A DNA stretch of 42,054 nucleotides from a virus. The DNA is taken from the IMG/VR virus record IMGVR_UViG_3300005515_000015. The stretch is one strand, 5' to 3'. Within the stretch, counting starts at the first letter, position 1, and the number at the start of each line of letters is the position of its first letter. Shown here one piece after another: positions 5,346 through 41,903 of this stretch. The notes below the pieces were generated by a model. That model saw nothing but the letters and a program-made list of their open reading frames with translations, was not told where the DNA came from and did not search any database. Made by a program: the position numbers and the translations under genes.

Positions 5346-5588
5346 TCAGTCTTCGGAAGGCTTCGCGGGGATGCCGCGTGCGTCGAGCACTTCGTTCATC
5401 ACGCTTACGAGAAGGCTGCGCATATCGGCATCGCTCAGGGCACGCGTGAGTTGATCGTCGAATGTTGATTCGAGACGCGCGACAATCTCGGCGGTCATCG
5501 ACCGGCGATTGTCCTCGGCGGCTTGCGAGATCTGCGATCTCAAGGGCTCTGGCAGCCGCAAGCGAAATTGATGGTCCTCTCTGCTCAT
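5346..5588 (-). CDS. Arc/Mnt-type ribbon-helix-helix DNA-binding protein, 80 aa
   Basis: N-terminus FRLRLPEPLRSQISQAAEDNRRSMTAEIVARLE is the Arc-like RHH signature. Confidence 0.8.
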   Translation of the reverse strand: MSREDHQFRLRLPEPLRSQISQAAEDNRRSMTAEIVARLESTFDDQLTRALSDADMRSLLVSVMNEVLDARGIPAKPSED

Positions 5589-5676
5589 GGTGCACAGATG
5601 GCATAAATCAGGTTTGACCGATATGCCTCACGCATGCCACAGATGTTAGCCCCACGGTGGGGCATTGGAGGATGTG

Positions 5677-5838
5677 ATGGATGAAGTGAGAATGTCCGTC
5701 CGGCTGCCAAAGGATGTCGTCGACTTCCTCGGCCGGATGGCAAAGGAGAATTTCACGTCACGGAACGCTGAGGTTATCCGCTCGGTTCGCGAGCGGATGA
5801 AGCGGGTGCAAACGGGGGCGGACGAGGCTGCGGAGTAG
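5677..5838 (+). CDS. Small ribbon-helix-helix (Arc/CopG-like) protein, 53 aa (below the ORF-track cut-off)
   Basis: Hand translation gives MDEVRMSVRLPKDVVDFLGRMAKENFTSRNAEVIRSVRERMKRVQTGADEAAE. GGAGG lies 5 nt upstream. Divergent from the 80-aa RHH gene. Confidence 0.65.
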   Translation: MDEVRMSVRLPKDVVDFLGRMAKENFTSRNAEVIRSVRERMKRVQTGADEAAE

Positions 5839-6749: not shown

Positions 6750-6974
6750 ATGAAACACGGTTCCGCCATCGCTCTGTATCGTGAAGCGCACGAGCTGACG
6801 CTCGAAGCGTTCGGATTGTTGTTTGATCCTCCGGTCGACAAGTCGACGGTGTCGCGCTGGGAGCGCGGCCGGCTCGATGCTCGACGGGCGGTCAATATTG
6901 AGGCGGTTACCGGAATACCCCGGCAGCATCTGTTGCCTGAGGTTTTTGGCGCTCCTTCGGAGGCGGCCGAATGA
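6750..6974 (+). CDS. Cro-like HTH regulator, 74 aa
   Basis: LTLEAFGLLFDPPVDKSTVSRWERG is an HTH. Position is opposite the CI-like gene. Confidence 0.75.
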   Translation: MKHGSAIALYREAHELTLEAFGLLFDPPVDKSTVSRWERGRLDARRAVNIEAVTGIPRQHLLPEVFGAPSEAAE

Positions 6975-7203: not shown

Positions 7204-7659
7204 GTGCGTTTTGATGAACCTGTCATGTTCCTGAAGGGTGCGACCGAGGCGAGCTTCAAGCTCGGCGGCGGTCTCACCTCGTTTGCCCTGCTGGCGCGTG
7301 TCGGTGTCTCGACGCTCTCGAAATACGCTTCGGTCAGCGAGGAATTCCGCGACAACGTGATCCCGGTCGATATCGCCGTCGAGGCAGACCGGCGGGCAGG
7401 CTCACCCATCATCATCGGCGAGGCGGCGCGGCAGCTCGGTTTCGACTTGGTGCCGTCGGGTGGAGCGGAGGCGGCAAAGCCGGTGACCGAGGCGGATGCA
7501 CACCGGGTTCTCTATGAGGCGACAGACGTTTCGCGCGCGATCCTCGATGCGAAGGCTGACGGCAAGATTGACGCGCTGGAGCGCAAGAGGATCGCCCAGG
7601 AAGCGCGTGAGGCAATCCGCGCGTTGGAGCAGGTGCTGGCCGGACTGGAGGAGGGGTGA
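7204..7659 (+). CDS. Early regulatory-type protein, 151 aa (possibly CII/CP76-like, tentative)
   Basis: GTG 7204 or ATG 7225. Central SKYASVSE... HTH-like segment and C-terminal coiled coil. Sits at the CII position after the terminator. Confidence 0.5.
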   Translation: MRFDEPVMFLKGATEASFKLGGGLTSFALLARVGVSTLSKYASVSEEFRDNVIPVDIAVEADRRAGSPIIIGEAARQLGFDLVPSGGAEAAKPVTEADAHRVLYEATDVSRAILDAKADGKIDALERKRIAQEAREAIRALEQVLAGLEEG

Positions 7660-8959: not shown

Positions 8960-9316
8960 ATGAGCGAATTCAATCCCATGGCGGTTAACGGCAAGTCGGC
9001 CGCGGCTGGCGATGACACGCCGGCGCCGCGCGCCACCGAGAGGCCTGGCCGCGAGGTCTCCTCCAACCAGGTCGCGCGTGACCAGTTGCGCGCCTTCATC
9101 GAGCGGATCGAGCGACTGGAGGAAGAGAAGTCGACGATCGGCGACGACATCAAGGCCGTCTACGCCGAGGCGAAGGCCACGGGCTTTGAGAACAAGGCCA
9201 TCCGCAAGATTGTCGCGATCCGAAAGAAGAGCCTCGACGACTACAACAACGAGATGGCGGTGCTCGACACCTACCTGGCCGCGCTCGGCATGCTTCCGGG
9301 AGGCGACGATGAGTGA
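8960..9316 (+). CDS. gapR: GapR-like nucleoid-associated protein (DUF2312)
   Basis: [49 protein letters not shown]...[10 protein letters not shown] closely follows the Caulobacter GapR/DUF2312 pattern. Confidence 0.85.
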
Positions 9317-11468
9317 CGGATGGAAGTCGCCTTTTGAGGTGAAGATCGGCAACAGTGACCTGCCGGTCGCATTGCGCATAGGCCAGATCCACGTCGGGCA
9401 TCGCTTGCGCACGGTTGATCAGGCGAAGGTTGATGCTCTCAAGGCCTCGATTGAAGAGCTTGGGCTGCGCACGCCGATTTCGGTGGTTGGCCCGATGCTT
9501 GCAGCCAACACTCCTTTGCAGATGGTCACTCTCGCGGCGGGCGCCCACCGACTCGAGGCGATGAAGCAGCTGGGCCGCGAATACATCGCGGCGATCATCC
9601 GCGACGAGGACGACCTCGACGCCGAGCTTTGGGAGATCGACGAGAACCTTTGCCGTGCCGAGCTTACGCCCGCCGACCGGGCCCTGTTCGTATTTCGCCG
9701 CAAGGAAATTTACCTCATGCGGCATCCGGAAACGGCCCACGGCGCGATTGGCAATGGTCGCGAGAAGAGTCGCCAAGTTGGCGACTCTACAGAAGAGCCG
9801 AAGCGTTTCACCACGGCGACCGCCGAGGCGACCGGGCAATCCGAGCGCGCCATCCAGCGCGATGCTGAGCGCGGCGAGAAAATCTCGGAGAAGGCGCTGC
9901 GCATGTTGCGCGGCACGCGCCACGACAAGGGCACCGTGCTTGACCGGCTGAAGAGCATGCGCGGTGAACAGGAGCAGGAGGTCTATGTCCGCGCGCTGTT
10001 TGATGCCGACAAGGCGACCGAGCATGAATCGAAGCAGATCCGGACCGACAAGCTGGCGACCAAGCGCGCCGTGCGGATCGGCGTCATCAACGCGATCGCG
10101 GAGCACGGCAAGCGCGCAGCGGGCGAGATGCCGCGCGCGGCATATGCCGTCGGGTATGCGGACCCGCCGTGGGAGCAGGAAGCCTGGAGCGACGAGACCG
10201 GCCAAGACAAGGGGCTGATGTATCCGCCCATGCCGCTCGACGATATCAAGGCGCTGTGCGCCGGCGACAAGAGCCCGTTCACGCGCGATGCAGTCCTCTT
10301 TCTCTGGGTCACCACGAACCGCCTTGACGACGGCATTTCCGTGCTCAAGGCCTGGGGCTTCGAATTCGTCTCGGCGGTCACCTGGGACAAGCAGCATATC
10401 GGCATGGGCCGCTGGGTGCGCGACCGGACCGAGCACCTGCTGATCGGCAAGCGTGGCGACTTCCCGGGCCCGATCATGGGGACGCAGCCGGAAAGCCTCT
10501 ATTCCGAGGTGAAGGGCGATCACAGCCGCAAGCCGCTGTGGTTCGCCGAAATGATCGACCGGCTGTTTCCGGAGATGCGGAAGCTTGAGCTTTTCCAGCG
10601 CAAGGCGAGCCTCGGCGAAGGCGATGTCCGGCTGAACGGCATGTGGGACTTCTGGGGCTTCGAGGCCGGGGAGGACTGCCGGGCCGAAACTGTCGAACCT
10701 GTGACGGCCGCCGCACCGGTTGATCCGCTCGCAGAGATTCTGGTCGAAACCAAGCTCGCGCCAAGCGGCTTTTTTCTGCATCTTGATCGAGGCTTGACCA
10801 ATCCCGCGACCTTGGACCTTCCGTCCAGGCTCTTCCGTTTCCCAATCGAATTTATGAGCGGGGAGAGGACCGGCGGCGAAAGCCGGTTGCTGCTGCGGCA
10901 TCCGTTGCTCTGGCAGGTTTCTGACGTTGTCGAGTTTCTAGTAGATGTCGAAAAGAAGACGGGTGTCAGGCCGGTCTGGGAGCCTCTGGACGAATTTGGT
11001 CGCGACTTCGGCGAGGGGTGGCGCTGGTATCACGCTGTCGATCTTTGCAACGATCGGCACTGGCAAGGGTTGATTGAGACCATTCGATTTACCGATCGCG
11101 AAAAGGTCTTCGCCGCTGTGCAGATCGGGCTCGATAGCAAAAGTCTGTCGCTCAAGAACGCACGCGCAATCATGTCGGAGCTGGAAACCACCGAACCGGC
11201 GACGGCTTCAAGCGTGCAGTTGATGCTCGGCAAGGCGCTAATGCCGTACCAGCACGACAAGGGCAAGCTGATCTCGCCGAACATCGCGGTGCGGGACGAG
11301 GCAGGCGCCTGGCTTGTCATCCACGGCCTTGAAGATGGCTTCTTCAACTATGTCGGCAATTACCTCTCGGTGACGCCGGACGGTATGGCGCGCCGCAAAG
11401 CCGCCGTCACTCCTGCCGGCGTCGAGCCGGCTCTTCCCCTCGAATTGGAGAGCAGCGATGAAGCTTGA
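9309..11468 (+). CDS. ParB-domain / MT-A70-family DNA methyltransferase fusion with about 260-aa unknown C-terminal extension, 719 aa
   Basis: N-terminal [33 protein letters not shown] (ParB-like). Central YADPPWEQE...LFLWVT...AWGFEF (MT-A70 DPPW core). ATG 9309 with GGGAGG RBS. Confidence 0.85.
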
Positions 11469-12537
11469 AACGACTGCGCGTATTCTGAAATCCGCTCTGA
11501 CCGTCGTCGGCCGCGTGGTCGACAAGCGCAACACCATCCCGATCCTGAACATGGTCAAATTCGCGGATGGTGCGGTGACCGGCACGGACCTCGATAACGA
11601 GGTATCGGTAAAGTTGCCTTCGAGCGGCTTTGATGGCGCTGCCTGCCTGCCTTTGCATTTGCTCGCGCGCCTGGTCTCGCATCTCGCGCCGGACGAAATT
11701 GTGCGGATCTCGACGACCGACAAGGGGGCGACCATCAGCTTCTCCTCCGGTCGGTACGACTTGCCGACGATCGACGTCGGCGATTTTCCTGAGTTCACAA
11801 TGGCGGAGGCGGCGCCGGTCGTGCTCGACGGCCAGCGCCTGAAAAAGGCTGTTACCTTTGTCGCGCCGTTTATCTCGAACGAAGAGACGCGCTACTACCT
11901 CAATGGCGTGCACATCTCTGAAGATGCGGCGGTGGCGACCGACGGGCACCGCCTCGGCTGGCACCCGCTCGGCTTCGAGGGGGGGGCATTCGGCAAGGCA
12001 ATCCTGTCAAAACGTCTTGTCGATACGCTGATCGCTTCTCCAGCGCCGAAGTCGGCCTTGCTCGGCAATGGCAAGGTCGCATTCGAGATGGAGGGTATGT
12101 CGGTGCGCTCCAAACTCATTGACGGCACCTATCCAGACTATCGACGCGTCATTCCGACCATGTCGGCGAATGCTGCACGGCTGGTAGTGGACCGGCGCGC
12201 ACTCCTGAAACTGATGGCCCGGGTGTCGGCTATGGGGGCCGTTCGCTTCGGATCGGGCGTGACCCTTGCCTGGGATGATGCTCGGATGGCGGTGGCCGCC
12301 AAGTTTGACGGTGGCGACGGCACGGCGCGCGAGACGCTGGCTGTGCTGCAGCCTTCGACGGGCGGCACGTCGACCTATAACTCCCACTATCTCGCCGCGG
12401 CGATGCGCTGCCTGCGCTCAGAAGTCGATGACGATAGTTTCGTCGTGCTCATGCCCATGCGCGGCGCACATGAAGATATCGCGGCGAGCCTCCTGACAGG
12501 GCTTCAGGCGGGGCGTGCAATGGATGAGGCGGCATGA
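11458..12537 (+). CDS. dnaN: DNA polymerase III beta sliding clamp homologue
   Basis: [35 protein letters not shown]...TGTDLD resembles DnaN N-termini. 359 aa is clamp length. Confidence 0.8.
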   Translation: MKLETTARILKSALTVVGRVVDKRNTIPILNMVKFADGAVTGTDLDNEVSVKLPSSGFDGAACLPLHLLARLVSHLAPDEIVRISTTDKGATISFSSGRYDLPTIDVGDFPEFTMAEAAPVVLDGQRLKKAVTFVAPFISNEETRYYLNGVHISEDAAVATDGHRLGWHPLGFEGGAFGKAILSKRLVDTLIASPAPKSALLGNGKVAFEMEGMSVRSKLIDGTYPDYRRVIPTMSANAARLVVDRRALLKLMARVSAMGAVRFGSGVTLAWDDARMAVAAKFDGGDGTARETLAVLQPSTGGTSTYNSHYLAAAMRCLRSEVDDDSFVVLMPMRGAHEDIAASLLTGLQAGRAMDEAA

Positions 12538-37026: not shown

Positions 37027-37048
37027 ACAGCGTACGAATCGACTGCGG

Positions 37049-37894
37049 TTAGCTGAATACATTGGCGACGTGCTCGATTGTGAAATCTTCCCCAATCCGA
37101 TCTCGCAACCAAGCAATGATCCCCTTCGATACGTGGTCGTCGATTACAAAAAGGTTTGCTTCGTTTCGTCCGATCGGACTTAACTCGACGCCCACCACAT
37201 CCTTAAGGAACGGCCGAATGGCCGTCTGAACATCTTTGTCGGGTGCCGTATTCTTTGATTTCACCCTAAATTTCTGCATCGGTTGTTCGTGTCGAGATGA
37301 ACGTGGAGTGGTGCCAGCTATAGCAAACTCCAGCCGTTCGAGCCGGTTCGCGATCAAGTCTACTTCCTGTAGAAGTACCTGATCGGTCGGGGAGGCGTTT
37401 TGTGCGATTTCAAACTTCCCCCGGGAGAAGGTCACTGGGTTGTCGATCTTGTGGTCAGGATCGATTGCTATAGCGACTGCCTCTTTGAGCGCCTCGCGGG
37501 CTCTTTTTAGGTCGCGAGGCCATTTGCGCTGGAATTTGATTGACCGGAAGGACGCGATATCGAAGGGAATCCTTTGTCCTTCAAGGTGCATATGAATTAT
37601 GGGCTTTTGAACCGTGTGGCGAATTCCGATTTCGTAAAATGCATTTGGGTTCAGAGTCGTGAGGTCGGCAATCACTAGTTCCGCCTCGAGAAGCGCGGTA
37701 ATAACTTGCGCATCAATGCGGCCGGGATCGGAGATTTTGTCGGCGCGCTTTACGTCAAACTCCGTAAAGCTCTGCCCAAAAACTGGCAGAATGATTTCCT
37801 CCAAGAGCCAATCGGCGTGGTTCCGATCGTCGCTGTCGTCGTCTCCGATCGGTCCAACTACGAAGCAGAGTTTCTTTTTTGCCGACCTTGCCAC
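37049..37894 (-). CDS. NDT/TIR-like Rossmannoid N-domain protein with unknown C-terminal domain (candidate effector)
   Basis: KKLCFVVGPIGDDDSDD...AELVIADLTTLNPNAFYEIGIRHTVQKPIIHM. GTG 37894 after AGGGGG (alternative TTG 37963, giving 304 aa). GC about 48-50%. Confidence 0.6.
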   Translation of the reverse strand: MARSAKKKLCFVVGPIGDDDSDDRNHADWLLEEIILPVFGQSFTEFDVKRADKISDPGRIDAQVITALLEAELVIADLTTLNPNAFYEIGIRHTVQKPIIHMHLEGQRIPFDIASFRSIKFQRKWPRDLKRAREALKEAVAIAIDPDHKIDNPVTFSRGKFEIAQNASPTDQVLLQEVDLIANRLERLEFAIAGTTPRSSRHEQPMQKFRVKSKNTAPDKDVQTAIRPFLKDVVGVELSPIGRNEANLFVIDDHVSKGIIAWLRDRIGEDFTIEHVANVFS

Positions 37895-37994
37895 CTTGTT
37901 TCGCCCCCTGTCATCCAAAGTTGCAGCTACAAATACAGAGTGTGCATGGTTGTGCAATATCAATAGATGACCGTTGCAACCGACCAGTGACGAG

Positions 37995-38243
37995 TCAGCG
38001 GTAGATTTCTAGGAACATAGAGCTGAGCTGCGGAGAGTTGATCCCGCATCGGTCAAATTTGCTGGCCCTCACATACCTTGGGCAGGTCATGCCTAGGCTG
38101 GCAATAAAGGTCGCGATCGGCATGTCGGAGCCCCATTTCTCGATCAGCCGCGAAACCTTGTAGCGGCCCTTGCGGTCGCAGTTGGCGCACTCGATCTCCA
38201 TGAAAGGCTCTTTGAATTCTCGAAGTGTCCGATGGGTCGACAT
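37995..38243 (-). CDS. Small Cys4 zinc-ribbon-like protein, 82 aa
   Basis: ATG 38243 preceded by AGGAGG. ECANCDRKGRY...MTCPRY...FDRCG. The longer ORF-track start would run through the promoter. Confidence 0.65.
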   Translation of the reverse strand: MSTHRTLREFKEPFMEIECANCDRKGRYKVSRLIEKWGSDMPIATFIASLGMTCPRYVRASKFDRCGINSPQLSSMFLEIYR

Positions 38244-38259
38244 ATTGCGCACCTCCTTC

Positions 38260-38293
38260 GTTCTCAATATGTTCTCAAGAGTGAAAGAGTCAA
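38260..38293 (-). promoter_or_regulatory. Sigma-70-type promoter overlapped by a GAAC-N7-GAAC (LexA/SOS-box-like) direct repeat
   Basis: Minus strand: TTGACT (38293-38288), 16-nt spacer, CATATT (38271-38266). Plus strand: GTTCTCAA-TAT-GTTCTCAA, i.e. GTTC(38260-63)-N7-GTTC(38271-74). Confidence 0.5.
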
Positions 38294-38308
38294 CGTGTCC
38301 TGATTTCG

Positions 38309-38602
38309 ATGACAGAGCCGTATCAGCCCCGCTACCAATGGCGCCGCACGCAACTCGATGAGCACGATCCGCCAAGCGATCTCGATTGGCTCGGCTTTGA
38401 CGGCGTGGGCTACATCGGTCGCATCAGAAAAGAGACCGGCGGACCGACCGCCGGCCGGTGGCACTGGGCAGGATCAACCCCTCGCACCTTCAGGGGCGCT
38501 CCGCCGACGCCGAACCAAGGCTATTGCGATACCGCGCGCGAAGCTACCGAGATGGCTGAAACCTATTGGGACTGGTGCCTCGCGCGAATGAAGGGCGAGT
38601 GA
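38309..38602 (+). CDS. Trp-rich hypothetical protein, 97 aa
   Basis: Natural composition. GYIGRIRKETGGPTAGRWHWAGS...YWDWCLARM. Directly upstream of the ligase gene and co-oriented with it. Confidence 0.6.
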   Translation: MTEPYQPRYQWRRTQLDEHDPPSDLDWLGFDGVGYIGRIRKETGGPTAGRWHWAGSTPRTFRGAPPTPNQGYCDTAREATEMAETYWDWCLARMKGE

Positions 38603-38634: not shown

Positions 38635-39606
38635 ATGGCTAAAACACTTACGGAGAAATCACCGCCAGCGCCGCCGGCAGATCCGATGCCCGCCCGCGTC
38701 GACCCATGTCTTGCGACCCTGGTTGATACACCTCCGAAAGGGCCGAACTGGGCCTTCGAAGTGAAATGGGATGGCTATCGCGCCGCGCTCCATATCGAGC
38801 CCGGGCGCGTCCGCGTCCTCACGCGCGGCGGCCATGATTGGACCGATCGCTTTCCCTCCATTGCAGCAGAGGCGCCCCATCTCGGGGCACAATCCGCGAT
38901 CATCGACGGCGAGGCCGTTGTGCTCGACGAGAAGGGCCGATCCGACTTCGGCCTGCTGCAACGCGCCCTCGGGCGCCGGCCGGGCGAGCATGGCCCCGGT
39001 GAAATCCTCCTCCTCGCTTTCGATCTTCTCTACCTCGACGGTCGCGACCTGCGCAGGCTGCCGCAGTCCGAGCGCCGGCAGTTGCTCGTCCAGCTTCTCG
39101 CCGGCCGCGACGGGCCAATCCGCCTTTCCGAAGAGGTCGACGCGGATGGGGCGGAGTTCTTCCGTGTTGCGTGCGAGTTGGGACTCGAGGGGATTATCGC
39201 CAAGCGGCGGGACATGCCCTATCGCATCGGGCGCCGGCCGGAGTGGCTGAAGATCAAATGCGCGCGTCGCGACACTTTCGTGATCGTAGGTTTTCAGCCG
39301 TCGACCGTGCCTGGCGCGATCGGCCGGCTGCTGCTGGCGGCCAAAGAAGGAGAGGGGCTTGTCTATGTCGGAGGCGTTGGGACGGGCTGGAGCGCCAAGG
39401 TGTCGCGCGATCTACGGGAGTTGCTGGAGGCGATCGTGACGCCTACGCCGGCGGTGAAACTGTCGCGGAAGGGTGCGGTGTTTATAGAGCCGGTGCTGGT
39501 CGCTGATGTAGAATACCGAGCGTGGACGCAGGATAAGAGGCTGCGGCATCCGTCGTTCAAAGAGGTGCGAAAGGCTGATGAGAATGCGCACGTCTTCGAG
39601 GTTTAG
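38635..39606 (+). CDS. ATP-dependent DNA ligase (LigD ligase-domain type, stand-alone)
   Basis: Motif I EVKWDGYR, III IIDGEAVV, IIIa FDLLYLDG, IV EGIIAKR, V WLKIK, plus an OB domain. Confidence 0.9.
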   Translation: MAKTLTEKSPPAPPADPMPARVDPCLATLVDTPPKGPNWAFEVKWDGYRAALHIEPGRVRVLTRGGHDWTDRFPSIAAEAPHLGAQSAIIDGEAVVLDEKGRSDFGLLQRALGRRPGEHGPGEILLLAFDLLYLDGRDLRRLPQSERRQLLVQLLAGRDGPIRLSEEVDADGAEFFRVACELGLEGIIAKRRDMPYRIGRRPEWLKIKCARRDTFVIVGFQPSTVPGAIGRLLLAAKEGEGLVYVGGVGTGWSAKVSRDLRELLEAIVTPTPAVKLSRKGAVFIEPVLVADVEYRAWTQDKRLRHPSFKEVRKADENAHVFEV

Positions 39607-40435: not shown

Positions 40436-41770
40436 TCATGCGCCGGCAAGATCTGGCCATGCGAACATGATGCCTTGTAGGAATGCTTGCCGGCGCTTCA
40501 TCTCGGCGCCGTCGCCGTATCGGGGGCGCCCGAACTCGTGCCCCATCAAATCGGCCTGCATCCGATCCGAGCAGTTGGCATTTTCGATACGGTCCTGGAA
40601 GCTATGGCGCAGCGAGTAGACGGTATGATCGTCTGTCGGCATCAGCCCGTTGTTTCGCAGGACCTTGTTGATCAGTGCCGACGCTGAGTCGGCGTTGTCC
40701 TGGTATTTTGCGAACCCCTGCGGCCTTTGTCGCATCGCCCATAGCGACACGCCGACGAGCGGCACGCGACGGATTGAGTAGTCGCTTTTCTGCCGCCGAT
40801 CGCTGCGCTCCGCGACCTCTATGTGCGGCACCTCGTCATCGAGGCGAATGTCCTGAGGTCTGAGGTTGCAGATTTCGCCGAGCCGCGCGCCGGTCTCAAC
40901 CATCGTGTAGACGACCAGGCGGGCATCCGCGTCGAGCATATCCATGGCGCCCGGCAGCAGGATCTTGCCTGTAATCCATTCGCCCGCGAATGGAGGCCTG
41001 CTGCGGCCCTTGGTGGCGTTCGTTTCCTTGATCCGGGCCTTTTCCCATACCGCGTGGTAATTCGTGTGCAGGGCGGCGTCTATGGGCGTGAGCATGCCCA
41101 TGATGTCGCTGAAGGATCGATTAGCAGTGTCGGCCTTCAGGCCCTCGTCGATTATCTTGTCGGTCCACCACTGGCGGAACTTCAGCACGTCCGGTCGCGC
41201 GATCGCACCGAGCTCCAGGTCTCCCATCACATCGACCGCGTAGGTGATCGCTCGCTCTCGCGAGATCTTGTGCTTCCTCAGCTGATTCTTCGACATCCCC
41301 GTAAGTCCGGCGGCGTTGTGCTGCTCGTAGAGCGTCCAGACGTTGCTGAGGCGCGGCGAGGGTTCGTCGACGGTTCCGGCAACGGCGTCGACGATTGTTT
41401 GCGAGCGATCGAGATTCTCTGCGACGACGGCCAGGCGCCTCTCGATCTCGTCTAGCGGAAGCGCTGCGACATCGGCGGCTGGCCGGTAGGTGAAGCCGAG
41501 CGACTGGGCAAGCTTGACTGCGGCTTCGTACCGCGCAAATGCAGTTTCGTTGTCGTTGCCGGTTAGGAGTGCGCGCCAAAGGCTCTCCGCGGCGTCATGG
41601 ACCGACTGCGCTTTTTCCAGCGCGTCCTTCAAAATCTTCGTTTTCAGGGACTGTTTGACGTGCGTGCGGTTGTCGAGGTGGGCAACTTCGGTCGGCACGC
41701 GTCGATAATAGCGGTAAATTCCGCTGACCGGATGCTTTACGACATAACGGGAGAGATCGTCAGATCCCAT
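40436..41770 (-). CDS. int: Tyrosine recombinase / phage integrase
   Basis: C-terminal catalytic region ARLGEICNLR...YSLRHSF...LMGHE...RYGDG. Internal ATG 41770 preferred over the ORF-track start at 41842. Confidence 0.9.
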   Translation of the reverse strand: MGSDDLSRYVVKHPVSGIYRYYRRVPTEVAHLDNRTHVKQSLKTKILKDALEKAQSVHDAAESLWRALLTGNDNETAFARYEAAVKLAQSLGFTYRPAADVAALPLDEIERRLAVVAENLDRSQTIVDAVAGTVDEPSPRLSNVWTLYEQHNAAGLTGMSKNQLRKHKISRERAITYAVDVMGDLELGAIARPDVLKFRQWWTDKIIDEGLKADTANRSFSDIMGMLTPIDAALHTNYHAVWEKARIKETNATKGRSRPPFAGEWITGKILLPGAMDMLDADARLVVYTMVETGARLGEICNLRPQDIRLDDEVPHIEVAERSDRRQKSDYSIRRVPLVGVSLWAMRQRPQGFAKYQDNADSASALINKVLRNNGLMPTDDHTVYSLRHSFQDRIENANCSDRMQADLMGHEFGRPRYGDGAEMKRRQAFLQGIMFAWPDLAGA

Positions 41771-41800
41771 GGGATTTGCGCCTTTTCGTTCCCCTGTGGT

Positions 41801-41832
41801 CCGAAAAGTAGCCAAAATGTAACCAAAAAAGC
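41801..41832 (+). promoter_or_regulatory. Three tandem CC(A/G)AAA(A/T)(G/A)(T/G)(A/C) decamers with 11-bp period (candidate integrase arm-type sites)
   Basis: CCGAAAAGTA 41801-10, CCAAAATGTA 41812-21, CCAAAAAAGC 41823-32, between the int start and the repeat. Confidence 0.45.
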
Positions 41833-41903
41833 AAGGGTACAAAGCGGGCGGCGAGGGCGCTTGCGTTTAAGTGTGCTTGTAAGCCGTTGAAATCCCTAAA
41901 TGA

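Follow-up and report, generated by a model that had tools for sequence, protein, structure and literature searches.

A predicted LexA operator fused to an accessory-gene promoter in a phiLM21-like prophage recurs as a cassette in viral contigs

We analyzed a viral DNA of 42,054 nucleotides (IMG/VR record IMGVR_UViG_3300005515_000015; hereafter the window, meaning this whole stretch at its full length), with the focus on a 65-bp intergenic region (38244-38308) that separates a leftward gene for an 82-amino-acid zinc-ribbon protein from a rightward unit consisting of a 97-amino-acid open reading frame (ORF) and an ATP-dependent DNA ligase gene (Table 1). On the plus strand, this region reads GTTCTCAA-TAT-GTTCTCAA (38260-38278), an 8-bp unit repeated directly with a period of 11 bp, or one helical turn, and an exact GTTC-N7-GTTC lies within the repeat at 38260-38274, ending 34 nt before the 97-amino-acid ORF, which begins at 38309. 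LexA boxes of the GTTC-N7-GTTC form are textbook knowledge for the Alphaproteobacteria. The original prediction for this locus, read from the DNA letters, had described the same repeat with the same period and embedded motif, which we could confirm, and had proposed that it is an alphaproteobacterial LexA box covering the -10 element of the leftward promoter.

This promoter was indeed recovered by a promoter scan of both strands between 36900 and 40500, which found exactly one sigma-70-like site, with its -10 hexamer inside the box. On the minus strand, TTGACT is followed after 16 nt by CATATT, then by GAGAAC and a putative ribosome-binding site (RBS), so that both the promoter and the position of the repeat over its -10 were borne out as originally described. 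The heptamer TTGACTC, comprising the -35 hexamer and the next base, occurs only once in the 42-kb window. As the original prediction had already cautioned, the eight specified bases carry no weight by themselves: bare GTTC-N7-GTTC was found three times in the window against 1.46 expected, at least three copies arose in 19 of 100 shuffles, and the other two matches (20984 and 41362), with spacers rich in G+C, fall within long ORFs. Since the bare motif is not enriched, the case for LexA must rest on other evidence. This lack of enrichment, together with the A+T-rich core of the box that doubles as the -10, would also suit a site that matches by chance and overlies an ordinary constitutive promoter, with its GAAC flanks conserved only as parts of that promoter; the GAAC half-sites, however, belong to no sigma-70 consensus, and the full-site scores and the pattern control described below speak against it as well.

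We scored the window with a LexA matrix built from 24 cleanly transcribed 15-mers, taken from LexA boxes of Caulobacter SOS promoters (PMC12700426 S3 Fig). Such a scan had been proposed as a check in the original prediction, and it singled out the predicted site, which scored 22.3 bits as compared with a minimum, median and maximum of 14.8, 19.1 and 25.0 bits for the training boxes, on a matrix that represents Caulobacter and not the Rhizobiaceae. The second-best 15-mer in the 42 kb reached 11.2 bits, lower than every training site, and 22.3 bits was not attained in any of 200 shuffles that preserved the composition of the window. The window holds exactly one strong LexA box, and this box is placed on a -10. 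With one LexA site and one TTGACTC in the window, a site for a host factor fits better than a set of phage operators.

The DNA of the region is 72-80% identical to that of the Sinorhizobium phages phiLM21 and phi3LM21, and homologues of the 82-amino-acid protein are found in Ensifer sp. PDNC004, BR816 and IC3342; the host thus probably belongs to the Sinorhizobium/Ensifer clade (Rhizobiaceae). The original prediction had allowed that the host might use a different SOS box, but this clade is reported to use the present one, the motif described for alphaproteobacterial LexA, including that of Rhizobium etli and Sinorhizobium meliloti, being GTTC-N7-GTTC or, on the other strand, GAAC-N7-GAAC (PMC3323433, PMC2248561). 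Furthermore, ttggAACacatagagAACaga, a motif predicted from alphaproteobacterial lexA promoters (PMC2248561 Table 5), resembles the site including its flanks. With the SOS boxes of recA, lexA, uvrA and other genes in R. etli, S. meliloti, Rhodobacter sphaeroides and Caulobacter crescentus, the site shares the GTTC repeat, the 7-nt A+T-rich spacer and the T before the second half-site; Caulobacter boxes read GTTCTTGATATGTTC and GTTCTGACTATGTTC, as compared with GTTCTCAATATGTTC here, and the overlap with core promoter elements is common to both. Unlike these host boxes, the predicted operator is prophage-borne, stands before a zinc-ribbon gene that is unannotated, and not before a repair gene, and has the -10 within the box spacer.

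To obtain a phylogenetic footprint of the promoter, we retrieved the sequences upstream of all homologues of the 82-amino-acid protein for which they could be obtained and aligned them at the -35. As a result, TTGAC, G.AACATA and GA.C were found to be invariant in the 10 aligned promoters, and the 13 nt from the -35 to the box, as well as the leader, were freely variable. A strong box (19-22 bits) was present in eight lineages, namely the window, the retrieved loci L003, L007/8, L011-13, L009, L006 and L010/L016, and Ensifer sp. BR816, and GAAC-N7-GAAC, the -35 and the -10 were all kept in eight diverged orthologous promoters. The box reads GAACATAGTTAGAAC in L006, GAACATAGCTAGAAC in L010/L016 and GAACATATTCAGAAC in Ensifer sp. 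BR816, the protein of which is only 44% identical; in L009, two additional small ORFs have been inserted and separate the zinc-ribbon gene from its boxed promoter. In Ensifer sp. IC3342 (L015 2380-2760), the box has decayed to GAAAATATCAGAC, apparently by a 1-bp deletion and a substitution, and a frameshift disrupts the zinc-ribbon gene, so that the operator and the gene appear to have been lost together.

Within the repeat, the first unit differs among lineages (TTGAGAAC, ATAAGAAC, ACGAGAAC, CGTGAAC or CATGAAC), with GAAC invariant. These alignments show (A)GAAC-N7-(A)GAAC to be the conserved element, as LexA would need. The 8-bp extension is a local coincidence, common only to the window and its closest relative. 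The 8-bp unit was rejected as the recognition element, because its TTGA extension varies among orthologous promoters and GAAC does not; accordingly, the weight that the original prediction had laid on the extended repeat has to be moved to the (A)GAAC half-sites and the embedded -10, where the conservation falls.

The same variation bears on a reading without LexA, in which the repeat would be an operator or iteron for a phage DNA-binding protein that recognizes the 8-bp unit TTGAGAAC. The exact direct repeat with its helical period would suit such a protein, several small DNA-binding proteins of the Arc-like and helix-turn-helix (HTH) types are encoded by the phage, and GTTCTCAA occurs four times in the window against 0.99 expected. 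Yet the other two copies (9186 and 33237) are single and inside long ORFs, no further copies lie in the immunity region of the window, and the box recurs in contigs of quite different gene content, even before a Y-family polymerase gene (see below). Together with the variable TTGA extension, these findings make a phage operator or iteron highly improbable.

The recurrence of the box was established by scanning IMG/VR with the pattern TTGACT-N13-GAACATA-N3-AGAAC (20 specified bases), which matched at least 119 contigs (L017-L135); all locus counts given hereafter are among the matches listed. A control pattern with permuted half-sites and the same -35, CATA and composition matched 3 contigs. 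The cassette has the form TTGACTC-N12-GAACATA(A/T)T(A/G)AGAAC, with TTGACTC present at 116 of the 119 loci; its commonest box is GAACATAATAAGAAC, which embeds CATAAT, and the median G+C content of the loci is 57.5%. This control and the matrix score that no shuffle reached, along with the locus L004, where a promoter exists without the half-sites, leave the chance match on a constitutive promoter as a very remote explanation.

The cargo of the cassette changes from phage to phage. Downstream on the same strand, we found a CEHPGC zinc-finger protein (phrog_29777) at 72 loci, the zinc-ribbon family at 35 loci by hidden Markov model or 52 by BLAST clustering, a 65-amino-acid GFTRGW family at 45, a 99-amino-acid YRFQSGRW family at 25 and an SNase-like nuclease at 12; at least 20 further contigs carry phrog_12188, the family of the 97-amino-acid ORF of the window, immediately behind the boxed promoter, and in one contig the promoter is followed by a Y-family polymerase (impB/mucB/samB family, PF00817, E 2e-23). 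Polymerases of the impB/mucB/samB type are a classical SOS gene class, and this cargo independently supports a response of the cassette to LexA. The divergent neighbor is a DNA ligase at 50 of the 119 loci (at 45, the ligase is 49-74% identical to that of the window over more than 150 aligned residues), and convergent lysis genes are present at 17-19; lysis genes, boxed promoter and divergent ligase, in this layout, are also the arrangement of the window itself. The boxed unit is located in the recombining accessory region at the attachment-site (att)-proximal end of phiLM21-like prophages, with the lysis genes on one side and the divergent ligase on the other, and the site in the window is, by all appearances, one copy of a widespread, putatively SOS-controlled promoter cassette at this locus.

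Several observations weigh against LexA control or limit its reach. L004/L005 retain TTGACA...CATATC but lack the half-sites (1.4 bits), one of the half-sites is degenerate in L156 and L157 (14.9 and 13.1 bits), and the distant orthologues L153-L155, which lie beside a tRNA/att site, have neither such a promoter nor a box. In addition, the scoring matrix does not come from the Rhizobiaceae, and part of the conservation could be due to a single promoter cassette having spread recently by recombination, and not to independent selection. From the boxless and degenerate orthologues (strong box in eight lineages, degenerate in three and absent in three), LexA control would be frequent, not obligatory, in the zinc-ribbon family. 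On the other side, the repeat, the full-site score, the inferred host clade, the blocking position and the conserved half-sites all agree in silico with a LexA operator, and we consider it highly probable that 38260-38274 is an operator for the host LexA, fused with a sigma-70-type promoter. The central claim of the original prediction, an alphaproteobacterial LexA box over the leftward -10, is thereby supported, as a predicted operator, by the matrix, the host clade, the footprint and the polymerase-linked copy.

We infer LexA binding, repression and the direction of the effect at 38260-38274 from the sequence. Bound to the direct repeat as a dimer, LexA would cover the -10 in the lysogen and keep leftward transcription of the zinc-ribbon gene off, and a TIR-like gene inserted behind it would probably be off as well; upon DNA damage, activated RecA would trigger the self-cleavage of LexA, and the promoter would fire.

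Table 1. Coordinates of the operator, the promoter and the genes discussed (positions in the window)
Feature	Coordinates	Strand	Remarks
Predicted LexA operator	38260..38274	-	Minus strand GAACATATTGAGAAC, plus strand GTTCTCAATATGTTC; 22.3 bits; both half-sites kept in orthologous promoters
8-bp direct repeat	38260..38278	+	GTTCTCAA at 38260-38267 and 38271-38278; TTGA extension of promoter-proximal unit not conserved
-10 hexamer CATATT	38266..38271	-	Inside LexA-box spacer; promoter scan; CATA invariant in 10 aligned promoters
-35 hexamer TTGACT	38288..38293	-	Promoter scan; TTGAC invariant in aligned promoters
Putative RBS GAAGGAGG	38252..38259	-	8 nt upstream of ATG at 38243; read from sequence
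82-amino-acid zinc-ribbon protein	37995..38243	-	First and conserved cargo of promoter; C19, C22, C54, C66
TIR-like 304-amino-acid ORF	37049..37963	-	Likely GTG start at 37894, AGGGGG upstream
~980-bp insertion unique to this phage	37027..38006	.	Carries TIR-like gene; replaced zinc-ribbon 3' end
97-amino-acid ORF	38309..38602	+	phrog_12188; divergent from boxed promoter
ATP-dependent DNA ligase	38635..39606	+	LigD-type ligase domain; PF01068, PF04679
Candidate immunity repressor, 131 amino acids	6309..6704	-	HTH_3 only; no S24 self-cleavage domain
Arc-like gene	5346-5588	-	Immunity region
Arc-like gene	5665-5838	+	Immunity region
186 CII-like gene	7204-7659		PF06892; next to candidate repressor

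The zinc-ribbon protein has four invariant cysteines and the invariant residues R24 and G26, and its family comprises 602 cluster representatives at E < 1e-3, the source names of which are all "hypothetical". No match to the 82-amino-acid protein was found in Pfam, PHROG, NCBIfam or PADLOC. Its AlphaFold2 model (predicted local distance difference test, pLDDT, 76.5) consists of a zinc-knuckle beta-hairpin followed by helices; a Foldseek search of the model against the PDB gave nothing with E < 1, and the PDB profile search returned spurious ankyrin hits only. Profile searches of genome contigs gave no match with the close alignment A1 and only two Ensifer loci with alignment A4. Some members of the family are larger, the domain being tandemly duplicated within one protein in P0014 and P0017 and fused to longer C-terminal regions in P0125 and P0140. 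The more distant zinc-ribbon orthologues (L004 3520-3610, L006 890-960, L010 2470-2535, L014 2415-2485 and L015) also carry a conserved leader of ~70 nt from the box to the RBS, in which a G+C-rich hairpin, GGCGC...GCGCC, is followed by CGACATGCGGCTTGTTGAAACCTCGATCGAGGAGG. The window, L003, L007 and L011 lack this leader, which might act as an attenuator or affect RNA stability.

The original prediction had described the leftward unit as a zinc-ribbon/NDT-like operon. The conserved, boxed zinc-ribbon gene stands, but the second gene proved to be a lineage-specific insertion, for which TIR-like is a better label: the 304-amino-acid ORF matches the PADLOC model PDLC00733 "Effector TIR" with E 2e-11 over residues 43-159, as well as phrog_3634, with neither a Pfam TIR hit nor a meaningful sequence match in the PDB. 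Homology to L003, L004, L007 and L009 stops at ~37026 and restarts at ~38007-38013, and the C-terminus of the zinc-ribbon protein of the window, which the insertion shortened and altered, differs from those of its homologues, the Cys70 of which was lost. The 304-amino-acid gene was thus rejected as an ancestral part of the operon, the ~980-bp segment being absent from all relatives. Between the two genes, the promoter scan detected nothing resembling a promoter or a terminator, which makes their co-transcription plausible. The insertion illustrates how a defence-type (TIR-like) gene could turn damage-inducible simply by landing behind a promoter of this kind. L010 has a different TIR_2 gene, located on the opposite side of the boxed promoter.

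On the other flank, the box was also claimed to lie close to the divergent 97-amino-acid/ligase operon. The proximity holds, at 34 nt within the 65-bp intergenic region; the evidence on control of this unit by the box is divided. A single LexA box governing both directions would make the phage-borne DNA ligase SOS-inducible, which is biologically plausible for a repair ligase, and the frequency of divergent ligases beside the boxed promoter, as well as the occurrence of phrog_12188 immediately behind it in other contigs, is in keeping with this idea. Nevertheless, no plus-strand sigma-70-like promoter was recognizable in the intergenic region, either by the scan or by eye in four loci of the same arrangement; the commonest arrangement places the box 54-68 nt upstream of the ligase ATG, past any -35; and phiLM21 and phi3LM21 carry the 97-amino-acid/ligase pair without any box, and also without the zinc-ribbon cassette. 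The ligase neighborhood may be merely inherited, and we regard bidirectional control as a doubtful, if tenable, possibility.

The window as a whole is laid out as a temperate phage, with leftward early genes, an immunity region at ~5.3-7.7 kb, replication and methylase genes, structural and lysis genes, the accessory region, and an integrase gene (40436-41842). From its position, the 131-amino-acid HTH_3 protein is the likely immunity repressor, and no G[DNE]SM.P (S24) motif was found in the six frames of the window. If the phage repressor cannot cleave itself, a factor that couples the SOS response to prophage induction would be needed, and the zinc-ribbon protein may serve as such an antirepressor or activator, which would extend the role of the LexA operator proposed here. 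Coliphage 186 tum is likewise controlled by a lone LexA site distant from the immunity region, and in the window the single LexA site also lies far from this region. The HTH-only candidate repressor, with a 186 CII-like gene adjoining it, fits this scheme, and phi3LM21, which has no zinc-ribbon cassette, encodes a 268-amino-acid CI with a GDSM self-cleavage motif. The use of LexA at antirepressor promoters by phages has been reviewed (PMC9437464, PMC3121763), and the zinc-ribbon family stands behind boxed promoters at 35-52 of the 119 loci.

Several findings nonetheless make this coupling rather unlikely. Searches of Pfam, PHROGs, NCBIfam, PADLOC and the PDB sequences, and of the PDB by Foldseek, brought up no antirepressor that the 82-amino-acid protein resembles in sequence or fold, and the good promoter of L004/L005 without a box would mean constitutive expression of an antirepressor. 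Homologues of the repressor of the window (55-78% identical) occur in 11 viral contigs, none of them among the listed contigs with the boxed module or a zinc-ribbon relative, in a comparison that used narrow protein patterns and is underpowered. Furthermore, the 602 representatives with their fused and duplicated forms suggest a more general role, and the neighboring cargo has a DNA-repair flavor (ligase, SNase-like nuclease and polymerase). Otherwise, the cargo would provide an SOS-timed accessory function, either a DNA-damage toolkit together with the ligase or defence, as for the TIR-like gene. A broader version, in which the boxed promoter marks a conserved SOS-inducible, att-proximal island of rhizobial temperate phages and its small proteins (the CxxC...C...C zinc-ribbon protein, phrog_29777 and the 65-amino-acid GFTRGW protein) are new LexA-controlled antirepressors or activators, or a damage toolkit with the ligase, also appears unlikely; if true, the island proteins would be a route by which DNA damage induces alphaproteobacterial prophages with non-self-cleaving repressors.

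It is well known that phages borrow the LexA of their host. With the LexA-repressed antirepressors (186 tum, and those of Salmonella Gifsy and Fels-2 phages; PMC3121763), the present system shares a single LexA site, here a predicted one, a small gene far from the immunity region and a candidate repressor without a self-cleavage domain; it differs in that the 82-amino-acid protein is not homologous to Tum or GfoA and one lineage is boxless, and co-occurrence with the repressor type was not found among the matches listed. As with the SOS-inducible morons (reviewed by Fornelos et al.), a mobile element would borrow the host LexA to time its accessory cargo, and what sets the present case apart from the morons reviewed is a single compact promoter/operator cassette, found in at least 119 viral contigs, the cargo of which is exchangeable. 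In the searchable literature, we came across no account of LexA control in rhizobial phages or of such a cassette, and a survey of phiLM21-like prophages reported no recognizable lambda or 16-3 operators and did not mention LexA or SOS (PMC12429752). DNA-damage sensing by rhizobial prophages has been barely described so far, and a strong predicted LexA operator on an accessory promoter offers a directly testable handle. [quoted passage not shown]

Two observations lie outside the boxed locus. In phi3LM21 (L139), two weaker LexA-like boxes were found at 6944-6958 and 41374-41388 (16.7 and 16.3 bits), although its CI has the GDSM self-cleavage motif; one of the two, GAACCAAAGGAGAAC, lies between divergent genes close to the immunity genes and overlaps the p15 RBS. 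In the window, 9012-11468 encodes an 818-amino-acid fusion of ParB_N with an MT-A70 methyltransferase, which is followed by a DNA polymerase III beta-clamp homologue (11458-12537).

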